Below are positions 1 to 3,900 of a stretch of DNA of 64,000 bases, one piece after another. Source of the DNA: Escherichia coli (GTDB lineage Bacteria; Pseudomonadota; Gammaproteobacteria; Enterobacterales; Enterobacteriaceae); the NCBI RefSeq assembly GCF_001677475.2, contig NZ_CP015229.1. One strand, given 5' to 3'. The notes beneath the pieces are model-generated. The model was not told the origin of the DNA, did no database searches, and saw only the letters and a program-made list of their open reading frames with translations. The stretch's first letter is position 1; each line of letters starts with the position of its first letter. The position numbers and the translations under genes are program-made.

Positions 1-665
1 CCATTTTTATAAGAATAAAACAACGATATTTAAGAGTGCTGGCAGCGGAGAAAAGGGTTAATACAGTCATTTAAGATTACTTCAGCTTTTCCTGTGGTGA
101 AAAATGAGAGGAATTGTAGCGCAATCTGTAAAAACAATTTCTCTTAACTAATAAAAAATCGCTAATAATCATTGTGTTAGATTGATTTGTTGCATAATAA
201 TAACAATATTATTAAAATCATTACAATCTTTAATTTAGAATAACATTTTTATGAAGGCCAGAGTACGTTAAGGGATGATGTATAGCGGTGATTGCTATTA
301 GATGGGAATGCAACCTTGTAAAACCGTTTTGCCCTTCTTTCTCCCTTTCAACGATAAGCCAGACATAATGTGGCTGCTTAAGCCAATTGTCGCAAAGCCA
401 AAGATCTCTCTATATAGCTAACCTCACGGTTAATCCGATTTCAGTATTACCGTGAGCAAGAACTATTTCCTTTTATATAACTCTTAAGGGTTACAAGCGT
501 GAATGCAAATGGTAATATAATGAAATGGTGCCTGCCCGTAATGACCATAACGAATCTACCCCGACGTAAAAGATATAGAGAATAAGATGCAGTAATGCTG
601 ATGCTTTGTTAATCAAATAACAAGATTTAAATTAATCGTAACTCATCAACGTTGTTGTTTTATTC

Positions 666-716
666 GGATGTCTGAAATGATGTTGTACAGAAAACTACAT
701 ATCATTTCAGACATCC
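666..716. repeat. Perfect 16-bp inverted repeat (ggatgtctgaaatgat / atcatttcagacatcc) with 19-nt spacer in AT-rich leader upstream of tpsA
   Basis: Read directly from sequence; arms at 666-681 and 701-716; a T7 run follows at 728-734. Confidence 0.6.
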
Positions 717-754
717 TCTAAATTGGATTTTTTTCACCCAAGGAGGAAGGAGGG

Positions 755-761
755 GGGGACT
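755..761. repeat. G7 homopolymeric tract within a purine-rich aaggaggaaggaggggggg motif
   Basis: Seen in sequence at 755-761; homopolymer of this length is a possible slipped-strand site. Confidence 0.5.
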
Positions 762-979
762 TTTAAATTATTGTGTTTTAGTAAGTTAGGTACTTCGCCG
801 TTCGATGAAAAAACAATAACTCTTAGTTGTTTTTTTGAGTCCTTATTTCAGCTTATTTTCCGTGATTTTTTATTGCGCCAGGTGATAGGATTTGCCGCAA
901 TCATTTTTGCTGATATTCCGTGAGTCATCAAAAGTGATCTGCATGTCCAAAATGAATAGCATCAATAAGGAAAACGTTA

Positions 980-3900
980 GTGGCGATGATAAATTTAAGT
1001 AAGGAAGCAACGGTGGGTAAAGCATTAACCCCTATTGCTATACTTATGATGTTGTCTTTTCCTGTAGCTTCTCAAGCGGCGGGATTAGTCATAAAAAATG
1101 GAACGGTATATAACGCCAATGGTGTGCCAGTCGTTGACATCAACAAACCTAACGGTAGCGGTTTATCTCATAATATCTGGGATAACCTAAACGTTGATAA
1201 AAATGGTGTCGTTTTCAATAACAGCGCTAATGAATCCAGTACTTCACTTGCCGGAAATATTCAGGGAAACAGTAATCTGACCTCCGGGTCGGCGAAGGTG
1301 ATCCTGAATGAGGTTACTTCCAAAAATCCTTCAACCATTAATGGGATGATGGAAGTTGCAGGGGATAAAGCGGATCTGATTATTGCCAACCCGAATGGTA
1401 TTACTGTAAACGGTGGTGGTTCAATCAATACAGGTAAACTGACCTTAACCACCGGGACGCCGGATATCCAGGATGACAAGCTGGCCGGTTATTCCGTGAA
1501 CGGCGGTACCATTACGCTCGGTAAACTGGATAACGCCAGCCCGACAGAAATTCTGTCCCGTAACGTGGTGGTTAACGGCAAAGTGTCTGCCGATGAGCTG
1601 AACGTTGTTGCTGGCAATAACTATGTTAACGCCGCAGGCCAGGTGACCGGTAGCGTATCCGCCACGGGTTCCCGTAACGGTTACAGCGTAGATGTTGCCA
1701 AACTGGGCGGAATGTATGCGAACAAAATCAGTCTGGTTAGCACCGAGAAAGGTGTAGGGGTTCGCAACCTCGGCGTTATTGCTGGGGGTGTTAATGGTGT
1801 CAGCATCGATTCCAAAGGTAACCTGTTAAATAGCAATGCCCAGATTCAGTCTGCAAGCACGATCAACCTGACGACAAATGGTACTCTGGATAACACCACC
1901 GGTACGGTGACATCTGTAGGCACTATCTCGCTCAATACCAACAAGAATACTATCGTGAATACTCGTGCGGGTAACATCTCTACGATGGGCGATATCTACG
2001 TTAACAGCGGTACGATTGACAATACCAACGGCAAGCTTGCGGCAGCAGGTATGCTGGCGGTCGATACCAATAACGCCACGCTGATTAACTCTGGTAAAGG
2101 GAGTTCTGTCGGGATTGAAGCGGGTATCGTGGCGCTGAAAACCGGGACGCTCAACAACAGCAATGGTCAGATTCGAGGCGGTTATGTGGGGCTTGAATCA
2201 GGCGCGTTGAATAACAACAACGGTGATATTCAGACCACTGGCGACATCGCCATTATCAGTAACGGTAATGTGGATAACAACAAAGGTCTGATCCGTTCGT
2301 CCACCGGGCATATCGTTATTGGTGCGGCAGGTAGCGTAAATAATGGTTCAACCAAAACCGCCGATACCGGCAGTTCTGACTCTCTGGGCATTATTGCAGA
2401 TACCGGCGTAGAAATTGGTGCGAACAACATCAATAACAACGGCGGACAGATTGCGTCTAATGGCAACGTCTCCCTGTCAAGTTACAGCACGGTCGACGAT
2501 TATGCGGGCAAAATTCTGTCCAACAGCAAAGTGATTATCAAGGGAAGCTCACTGCGTAACGATACCGGGGGGATCAGCGGTAAGCAGGGTATTGAAGTCG
2601 CCGTTGGCGGCAGCCTGACCAATAACATTGGCGTGATCAGCTCTGAAGAGGGTGATATCTCCCTGTTAGCCAACTCAGTGGACAACCACGGCGGCTTCAT
2701 GATGGGGCAGAACATCACGATGGAGTCGATGTCTGGCGTTAATAACAACACCGCGCTGATCGTGGCCAGCAAAAAACTGAAGATAAACGCGTTCGGTAAT
2801 ATTGAAAACCGCGATGGCAATAACTTCGGTAATGCTTATGGTCTGTACTTCGGCATGCCTCAGCAAACGGGTGGAATGGTCGGCAAGGAAGGCATCGAGC
2901 TTTCCGGGCAGAACATCTATAACAACAACAGTCGTTTCATCGCTGAGGATGGTCCTCTGACTCTGCAGGCGCAGAACACGTTCGACAACACGCGTGCTCT
3001 GGTCACCAGCGGGTCGGATGCCTCTATTCAGGTTGGCGGAACGTATTACAACAACTACGCTACCACCTGGAGTGCGGGCAACCTGGATATCGACGCGACC
3101 ACGCTGCAAAACAGCAGCAGCGGTACGATGATCGATAACAATGCGACCGGGTTCATAGCATCTGATAAAAATCTGTCACTGGAAGTGGTGAATAGCCTTA
3201 CCAACTACGGCTGGATCAGCGGTAAAGGCGATGTTGATGTCACGGTGAATAACGGCAACCTGTACAACCGCAATACTATTGCGGCTGAAAAGGGGCTGGA
3301 TATTGCCGCGTTGAACGGTATTGAAAACTGGAAGGATATTTCTGCTGGCGGCGACCTGACGATGAACACCAATCGCCATGTGACCAACAACTCCAACAGC
3401 AATATGGTGGGGCAGAATATCGTTATTAACGCGGTTAACGATATCAACAACCGTGGCAACATTGTCAGTGATTTTGACCTGAACGTGACAACCAAAGGCA
3501 ACCTGTATAACTATCTCTATATGGTGGGTTATGGGGATGTCGCATTAACGGCAAATAGCGTGGCGAACAATAACGCGACCATCGAAGCGACAGGCGATCT
3601 GATTATCGATTCGAAGGGCAACGTGGGCAATTACCACGGTAAGCTGCATGCGTTGAACGGCGTGTTGTCTGTAAAAGGCAGCAATCTGAACAACGACTAC
3701 GGTGAAATTCGTGGTTATGACGACGTCACGCTGGCACTGACGGGCAACTACGACAGCTTTAAGGGCTCGCTGACCTCTGAAACGGGCGACGTGACTTTGA
3801 CGGCGAACATCATAGACAACGCCTATGGTCTGATTGCCGGTGAGAATGTTTCTGTCGATGCTAGATCGACGATTTACAACAACACTGCGCTGATCGCGGC

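Follow-up and report, generated by a model that had tools for sequence, protein, structure and literature searches.

A predicted RNA stem-loop with maintained pairing in the leader of the Escherichia coli O-island 47 tpsA operon

The tpsA gene of Escherichia coli O-island 47 is preceded by non-coding DNA that carries a perfect 16-bp inverted repeat, and the question raised by this locus is whether the repeat acts as RNA, acts as DNA or has no function. The window, i.e., the whole stretch of 64,000 nucleotides that was analysed, begins within an AT-rich, ORF-free spacer of 1.39 kb, which separates a divergent fimbrial operon from tpsA (Z1542/ECs1282). Only the final ~980 bp of the spacer are present in the window; its left end, as seen in complete genomes, is the start of the fimbrial operon. 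The GC content is 27–40% across positions 1–1000 vs ~50% in tpsA, and the longest ORF in the leader has at most 66 aa, which bears out the AT-rich non-coding leader described in a previous sequence-only reading of this DNA. The longest leader ORFs are disrupted by indels in other lineages, and ORFs 302–421 and 723–923, both broken in this way, were discarded. From the base composition, silencing of the leader by nucleoid proteins is plausible, as that reading had proposed. O-island 47 is present in ~7% of complete E. coli genomes and in nearly all O157:H7 strains. No mention of the ECs1281/ECs1282 spacer was found in the published literature, and the regulation of the O-island 47 exoprotein/lipid-synthesis operon appears uncharacterised in the literature searched. 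The features that the argument needs are the following, in window coordinates:

423–456, no strand assigned: second inverted repeat, CTCACGGT at 423–430 and ACCGTGAG at 449–456, with an 18-nt loop
606–633, + strand: weak sigma-70-like hexamer pair, TTGTTA-16-TAAATT (8/12 matches), a candidate promoter
666–716, + strand: main hairpin, with a lower stem (666–681/701–716) of 16 bp, perfect in the window
682–700, + strand: upper part of the main hairpin, with G682:U700, bulged U683, an apical stem (684–687/696–699) and the loop CAGAAAAC (688–695)
728–734, + strand: T7 run, beginning 11 nt 3′ of the stem, with 6–8 T in all lineages
740–758, + strand: homopurine tract resembling a Shine-Dalgarno sequence, with a G run at its end
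904–944, + strand: third, imperfect hairpin, ATCATTTTTGCTGAT/GTCATCAAAAGTGAT, within the block 801–1000
980–4792, + strand: tpsA, filamentous hemagglutinin-like exoprotein, annotated start GTG 980
4881–6500, + strand: tpsB, ShlB/FhaC/HecB family transporter

After tpsB, the same strand continues with a block of acpS/SDR/FabZ/ACP/ketosynthase genes. Regarding the start of tpsA, GTG 1013, preceded by AAGGAAG at 1001–1007, seems likelier than GTG 980.

The 16-bp repeat, GGATGTCTGAAATGAT at 666–681 and ATCATTTCAGACATCC at 701–716 separated by 19 nt, is exactly as the sequence-only reading had given it. Perfect repeats with loops of 3–40 nt were searched in 300 dinucleotide-preserving shuffles of positions 1–979; their maximum was 12 bp vs the 16 bp observed, and the repeat is therefore not due to chance. 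The second, 8-bp repeat, previously placed at about 424–459, is also present, precisely at 423–430/449–456. Perfect repeats of at least 8 bp occur 1.1 times on average per shuffled region, and at least one is found in 65% of the shuffles, so that this repeat is, by frequency, at chance level and has no support as an element of its own. Its three haplotypes have C:G, U:A or, in 9 of the 23 sequences, a C·A mismatch on the + strand. The main hairpin as a whole comprises 21 bp around an 8-nt loop, including a G:U pair, a 1-nt bulge and four apical pairs, with six G:C pairs among the lower 16, and a 4-bp extension of the stem is possible at 659–662/719–722. The free energy of the RNA (657–724) is −28.9 kcal/mol, and as DNA the hairpin reaches −16.5 kcal/mol (z = −7.0). 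A search of positions 1–1300 against Rfam 15 at a permissive E-value gave no family reaching its gathering score at the hairpin; the best match to the leader, at 31.8 bits vs a gathering score of 53, is to a model of a eukaryotic miRNA precursor and represents generic hairpin noise.

The pairing was analysed in an alignment of 23 sequences, with 11 haplotypes. Divergence among the haplotypes is ~7–8% and they form two main lineages, which keeps the covariation statistics modest and subject to a relatedness caveat. The lower stem varies at a rate similar to that of the spacer (6 of 32 columns vs 16–19%), and four of its six variable columns correspond to two G:C to A:U double changes, at 667:715 and 670:712. 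Changes limited to one side number three, at 666:716, 669:713 and 670:712; each makes a wobble pair (G:U or U:G) on the + strand and a mismatch (A·C or C·A) on the minus strand. In 10 of the 11 haplotypes the + strand forms all 16 lower-stem pairs, vs 14–15 of the 16 for the minus strand in four of these, and the haplotypes with one-sided changes fold at −26 to −28.5 kcal/mol on the + strand vs −20 to −23 kcal/mol on the minus strand. This strand bias comprises three one-sided events, roughly p = 1/8. One haplotype of the G·T type, that of O157:H7, is found in every O157:H7 record listed. The divergent lineage has an additional C665:G717 pair, and a U·U mismatch occurs in one lineage (L018, L041). 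Across the 11 haplotypes, 95.7% of the pair cells are paired, with two compensatory pairs, and the covariation score lies above 500 of 500 shuffles, a result to which the relatedness caveat applies. The central 11 bp of the stem and the loop are invariant in 23/23 sequences in an otherwise variable spacer, the outer 5 bp of the arms covary or wobble, and the variable columns are concentrated at the base and flanks of the hairpin (16 within 701–750). Since pairing is kept despite stem variation at the background rate, an RNA stem-loop on the + strand is favoured: pairing survives both compensatory and wobble changes on that strand, as in a structured leader RNA, and for the 16-bp repeat the earlier proposal of such an RNA finds support.

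With a probability of roughly 0.4, and thus tentatively, we read the 16-bp repeat as the lower stem of a 21-bp + strand RNA stem-loop in the long untranslated leader of the tpsA-tpsB-lipid/polyketide operon: a lineage-specific, cis-acting element in which pairing is maintained, not sequence, and whose likeliest role is in the processing or stability of the leader RNA. The + strand RNA of the leader, once transcribed, would fold into this stem-loop, which is predicted to govern leader processing or stability. With its two helical turns, the duplex would be of a size that RNase III can cleave; slower decay, conferred by a stable hairpin near the 5′ end, or pausing of RNA polymerase may also be envisaged. 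The leaders of rnc, pnp and lambda N are examples of mRNA leaders processed by RNase III. The main hairpin resembles them in the length and near-perfect pairing of its duplex (21 bp with one bulge, about two helical turns), which has the size of an RNase III substrate (dsRNA of ~20 bp or more), in its sense-strand, untranslated position ahead of the first operon gene, and in that pairing prevails over sequence. Unlike them, it has no sequence kinship to the known examples and is here known from sequence alone. Should the candidate promoter at 606–633 be real, the hairpin would also resemble the 5′ stem-loop stabilisers of the ompA type, in that a stable structure would then lie close to the beginning of a long leader ahead of an outer-membrane/secreted-protein operon. 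Such stabilisers work only when at most a few nucleotides separate the hairpin from the 5′ end, in contrast to the ~25 unpaired nucleotides that would precede it here from the candidate start. The conserved hairpin is an ordinary kind of element with a predicted function.

Both hexamers of the candidate promoter are invariant in the 23 sequences, and they form the sole sigma-70-like pair outside the hairpin within 540–1012; an RNA initiated from them would start near 640, ~25 nt ahead of the hairpin. The most conserved block of the leader is 801–1000, which is nearly invariant and lies downstream of the main hairpin, and a real tpsA promoter within it could put the hairpin outside the mRNA. 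Among the entries listed in Cappable-seq tables of strain EDL933, there is no start site in the spacer, one start inside tpsA at about window position 1051 in stationary phase, and an antisense start site on the + strand 2.4 kb upstream. The Hfq-CRAC and RNase E-CLASH supplementary tables of strain Sakai contain no entry for the ECs1281–ECs1282 spacer under the growth conditions used. The locus appears to be silent in laboratory media. The small RNA that had been suggested for this region is not supported by the rows listed in the O157 Hfq, RNase E and start-site tables, which have no entry for it and cover limited growth conditions.

The region had also been proposed to hold a terminator insulating the island from upstream transcription. 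The main hairpin shares with intrinsic terminators and leader attenuators a stable sense-strand hairpin, a T run 3′ of it and a position 3′ of a possible upstream promoter and 5′ of the operon. A canonical intrinsic terminator was nevertheless rejected: the stem is followed by TCTAAATTGGA and then T7, placing the U tract at 11 nt instead of 0–2 nt, the 21-bp A/U-rich stem is outside the G+C-rich 5–14 bp range (the 8-nt loop is within 3–8 nt), and a promoter/terminator scan, with counts at chance level, gave no site at the hairpin. Unlike leader attenuators, it has no alternative antiterminator structure or leader peptide that could be found. Tail scores in the TransTermHP style are −2.8 for the window sequence that follows the stem, −3.6 if the possible 659–662/719–722 extension is counted in, and −1.7 on the minus strand; 21% of the positions in this T-rich region match the hairpin score or better, and the divergent lineage scores −1.9, under the program cut-off. 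The insulating terminator is therefore not sustained in its canonical form, with a tail score at background. A looser version, in which the + strand hairpin, terminating weakly or under regulation or blocking 3′ exonucleases, would insulate the tpsA promoter region from upstream transcription or end a short RNA begun near 640, is in our view unlikely. It would agree with the strand bias, with the T run kept in all lineages, with better tail scores on the + strand, with the location of the most conserved block, possibly the true promoter, downstream of the hairpin, and with the + strand antisense start among the EDL933 entries listed; the distance of the T run, the empty scan, the ordinary tail score, the atypical stem and the lack of an sRNA entry here in the Hfq and RNase E crosslinking tables argue against it.

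The repeat could instead act, if at all, as DNA. Template switching, a known mutational mechanism in E. coli, copies a change in one arm into the other, so that the apparently compensatory changes could be mutational and not selected, and the arms of a functionless quasi-palindrome would be kept complementary by intramolecular switching during replication. A stem no better conserved than the spacer, variation clustered at the hairpin base and flanks, the lack of a transcript entry among those listed for EDL933 and Sakai, and the failure to find a counterpart in other genera are all in line with this explanation. Switching would however restore Watson–Crick arms, and yet G·T pairs persist in four haplotypes, all of the type tolerated in + strand RNA and one of them in every O157:H7 record listed; the invariance of the central 11 bp and loop amid a variable spacer also counts against it, and where A:U pairs weaken the stem, in the divergent lineage, the gained C665:G717 pair looks like a compensation of stability. 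We consider such a quasi-palindrome rather improbable. A double-stranded DNA operator, with a dimeric or tetrameric regulator such as the ToxR-like GrvA of the island bound to arms whose centres are ~35 bp apart and controlling tpsA and/or the divergent fimbrial operon, is very unlikely. In its favour, none of the 23 sequences varies in the inner 11 bp of either arm (TCTGAAATGAT), and the site lies in a regulatory spacer common to two adhesin operons with a regulator gene nearby (PMC10877973). Against an operator are the covariation, the wobble changes and the new pair at the stem base, unexpected for a palindrome bound by protein, as well as arms of 16 bp, which far exceed typical half-sites, and an apical mini-stem that is complementary too. 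ToxR-type regulators usually bind direct repeats, which likewise counts against an operator.

The distribution of the hairpin bears on whether it could be a mobile-element scar or miniature copy, whose two terminal inverted repeats would enclose little else, and for which a perfect palindromic unit in AT-rich, horizontally acquired DNA would speak. The sequence-only reading had named absence of the repeats from otherwise identical loci as a refutation, and this did not come about: each of the 380 complete E. coli genomes with the locus (380/5426) has the hairpin, as a single copy. It was not found in the 5046 complete genomes without O-island 47, and there is no second copy in the 64-kb window. 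A metagenome scan with the core stem yielded eight E. coli-like copies of the same locus and nine unrelated palindromes, which differ from the hairpin in loops and flanks, and in a plasmid collection the same locus was found in two E. coli records only. With one copy per genome, metagenome matches that are either the same locus or unrelated, and no visible target-site duplication, a mobile-element origin is largely refuted and is given almost no weight. The hairpin resembles REP, BIME and ERIC elements as an extragenic palindrome with a possible stable RNA hairpin, and differs from these multi-copy families in being single-copy, confined to one island and without a similar copy in other E. coli genomes. 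The orthologous tpsA loci of Enterobacter, Kosakonia, Mixta, Rahnella, Buttiauxella, Acinetobacter and others have no similarity in the leader, which makes comparison between genera impossible, and no comparable hairpin was found upstream of these orthologues.

The RNA stem-loop that we prefer may be part of something larger. The leader hairpin, the variable homopurine/G tract and the 904–944 hairpin together could form an undescribed, Escherichia-specific regulatory leader (a switch controlled by RNase III or a protein, a conditional stop, or a small RNA of the island) that would gate the whole ~20-kb O-island 47 operon, a proposal that we regard as distinctly unlikely. This operon couples a two-partner-secretion exoprotein with an acyl-carrier/ketosynthase lipid pathway, and a maintained structure in its leader offers a concrete handle on when this normally silent operon is expressed. 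Apart from this, the stem-loop is one further lineage-specific leader hairpin, with no bearing on long-standing open questions.

Several smaller elements of the leader were considered separately. A 17-codon ORF in the hairpin (668–721) was rejected, as it is without a ribosome-binding site and the divergent lineage lacks its first ATG. The Fur box near 158–176 was set aside with merely 11/19 matches by hand count, as was a 12-bp long-range complementarity of 13–24 with 654–665, estimated to be about chance for 1 kb of AT-rich DNA. No ops/JUMPStart element for RfaH was found in the leader. The 740–758 tract has no start codon at working distance, and its poly-G part was rejected as a promoter-spacer phase switch, there being no hexamers at workable spacing; the G run varies between lineages in both length and composition. 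The third hairpin, at 904–944, is conserved, and its one-sided changes still pair on the + strand.

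The hairpin lies upstream of tpsA in the right-hand portion (window 1–979) of a 1.39-kb spacer, the left end of which is outside the window; in complete genomes, a divergent fimbrial operon starts there. The spacer part of the window had been described as AT-rich non-coding DNA, and this description holds: its GC content is 27–40% and it contains no conserved ORF, the longest ones being broken by indels in other lineages. The features of the locus are as follows.

Features of the tpsA locus (window positions)
606–633, + strand: sigma-70-like hexamer pair TTGTTA-16-TAAATT, 8/12 matches, hexamers invariant in all sequences
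904–944: imperfect 14-bp hairpin, ATCATTTTTGCTGAT/GTCATCAAAAGTGAT, inside the block 801–1000
980–4792: tpsA, two-partner-secretion exoprotein gene, right of the spacer
4881–6500: tpsB, transporter for the tpsA exoprotein, right of tpsA

Downstream of tpsB there are acpS, SDR, FabZ, ACP, aminomethyltransferase and ketosynthase genes. In E. coli O157:H7 this locus is known as O-island 47 (alias S-loop 71); it is located between dgcT/ycdT and ycdU, and its tpsA is Z1542/ECs1282. The region is found in 380 of 5426 complete E. coli genomes, as a single copy in each, with 90–98% identity to the window. A tRNA-Ser(GGA) gene (21503–21590, minus strand) directly follows the ycdU-like ORF (20323–21309); in strain Sakai, the SpLE1 element starts immediately after ycdU. 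The annotated tpsA start is GTG 980 (ATG 986 in an older annotation), but GTG 1013 looks like a better one, because it is preceded at a good distance by AAGGAAG and opens a typical signal peptide.

The 16-bp inverted repeat (666–681/701–716) is perfect, lies exactly where the sequence-only reading had placed it and exceeds what is expected by chance, the longest perfect repeat with a 3–40 nt loop being 12 bp in 300 dinucleotide-preserving shuffles of 1–979. The stem continues through a G682:U700 pair, a bulged U683 and four further pairs, up to 21 bp in total, and is closed by an 8-nt loop. Folded as RNA, the + strand has a free energy of −28.9 kcal/mol and the minus strand one of −28.4; folded as DNA, the hairpin reaches −16.5 kcal/mol (z = −7). 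The hairpin is a real feature, of a known kind and specific to one lineage.

Variation was analyzed in 23 sequences, namely the window itself, eight metagenome contigs and 14 complete genomes selected to span the identity range; together they define 11 haplotypes of 655–726. The lower stem as a whole is as variable as the spacer (6/32 columns vs 16–19%), yet its pairing persists; neither the loop nor the inner 11 bp varies. In the divergent lineage, both 667:715 and 670:712 change from G:C to A:U, and an additional C665:G717 pair is gained. One-sided changes in other lineages, at 666:716, 669:713 and 670:712, each yield G:U or U:G on the + strand, where the minus strand would have A·C or C·A; one lineage (loci L018 and L041) carries a U·U mismatch. 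In total, 95.7% of cells are paired on the + strand vs 92.6% on the minus strand, and all 16 lower-stem pairs form on the + strand in 10 of the 11 haplotypes, in four of which one or two of these pairs are missing from the minus strand. In haplotypes with one-sided changes, the + strand still folds at −26 to −28.5 kcal/mol, but the minus strand falls to −20 to −23. RNAalifold on 390–1015 confines compensatory pairs to this hairpin. By a rough estimate, six variable columns would include two complementary double changes by chance with a probability of a few percent; the strand bias adds a further ~1/8. The evidence is suggestive rather than overwhelming.

Among the several readings proposed earlier, it is the structured RNA that these data favor, given the pairing kept across haplotypes and the preference for the + strand. 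Our tentative interpretation, with a probability of about 0.4, is that + strand RNA of the tpsA leader folds into a stem-loop kept for its structure; a role of the 21-bp duplex in processing or stability would be the most natural fit. A neutral quasi-palindrome, with arms kept complementary by template-switch mutation, could also produce paired changes, but it is an unlikely source, since wobble haplotypes persist and the core is invariant. It is similarly doubtful that the hairpin acts as a weak or conditional + strand stop or as a 3′-end hairpin, given the poor T-tract geometry. The insulating terminator suggested earlier was not borne out as a canonical intrinsic one: the T7 run starts 11 nt past the stem, a terminator scan reports none, and the TransTermHP-style tail score (−2.8 in the window) is at background level, being reached by 21% of positions in this T-rich region. 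The score is −1.9, under the usual cut-off, in the divergent lineage and −1.7 on the minus strand.

A DNA operator, for which the perfect repeat might serve, is improbable, and the scar of a mobile element highly so. A repeated element was rejected, as the hairpin occurs once per genome, is absent from genomes lacking the island and has no second copy in the window. It matches no Rfam family, the leader contains no ops element, and every hit of a metagenome scan for the core stem was either a copy of the same locus or an unrelated palindrome. Orthologous tpsA loci of other genera have upstream regions with neither similarity nor a comparable hairpin; in Enterobacter, Kosakonia and Mixta (L006–L009, L015), the orthologues share 65–70% amino-acid identity. 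Transfer or retention of the exoprotein gene was therefore independent of its leader.

Regarding published transcript data, no start is found in 1434971–1436360 among those listed in the part of the EDL933 Cappable-seq tables considered, where the only one nearby is internal to tpsA, at 1436432, and is listed for two stationary-phase conditions. The same part lists, in most growth conditions, an antisense start within the fimbrial chaperone gene (NZ_CP008957 1433659, + strand), which lies 2.4 kb upstream of the hairpin, beyond the window, and is directed at the spacer and tpsA. For strain Sakai, neither the Hfq-CRAC nor the RNase E-CLASH tables contain a spacer entry. Because of this lack of listed starts and entries, the locus looks silent in laboratory media. 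Silencing by nucleoid proteins is a plausible candidate from base composition.

The spacer differs by 7–8% between the two main lineages, vs ~1% for the first 1.2 kb of tpsA (1013–2230), which suggests fast evolution, very relaxed constraint or a separate recombination history; divergence hot spots are found at 101–200 and 701–750. Only 13 of the 200 columns vary in the block 801–1000, and none in 951–1000; this nearly invariant block probably holds the core promoter or proximal 5′ UTR of tpsA, yet contains none of the sigma-70-like hexamers searched for. One-sided changes in its 904–944 hairpin also preserve + strand pairing. Only two sigma-70-like pairs occur on the + strand of 540–1012, one within the main hairpin itself and the other at 606–633, a candidate promoter that, as a weak prediction, would place the hairpin ~25 nt into a ~370-nt leader.

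The second repeat noticed in the sequence, of 8 bp, is present (423–430/449–456), but is treated as chance: such repeats occur ~1.1 times per shuffled region, and of its three haplotypes the intermediate one, carried by 9 of the 23 sequences, has a mismatch on the + strand. A homopurine, Shine-Dalgarno-like tract at 740–758 (AAGGAGGAAGGAGGGGGGG) ends in a G run that ranges from 3 to 9 G among E. coli lineages, through substitutions and length changes. The tract lacks a start codon at working distance and might serve to bind a protein or the ribosome, or just be prone to slippage. Finally, at 808–835 an A run pairs with a T run in a 9-bp inverted repeat (AAAAAACAA/TTGTTTTTT) with a 10-nt loop, the T run being 6 or 7 nt long depending on the lineage.
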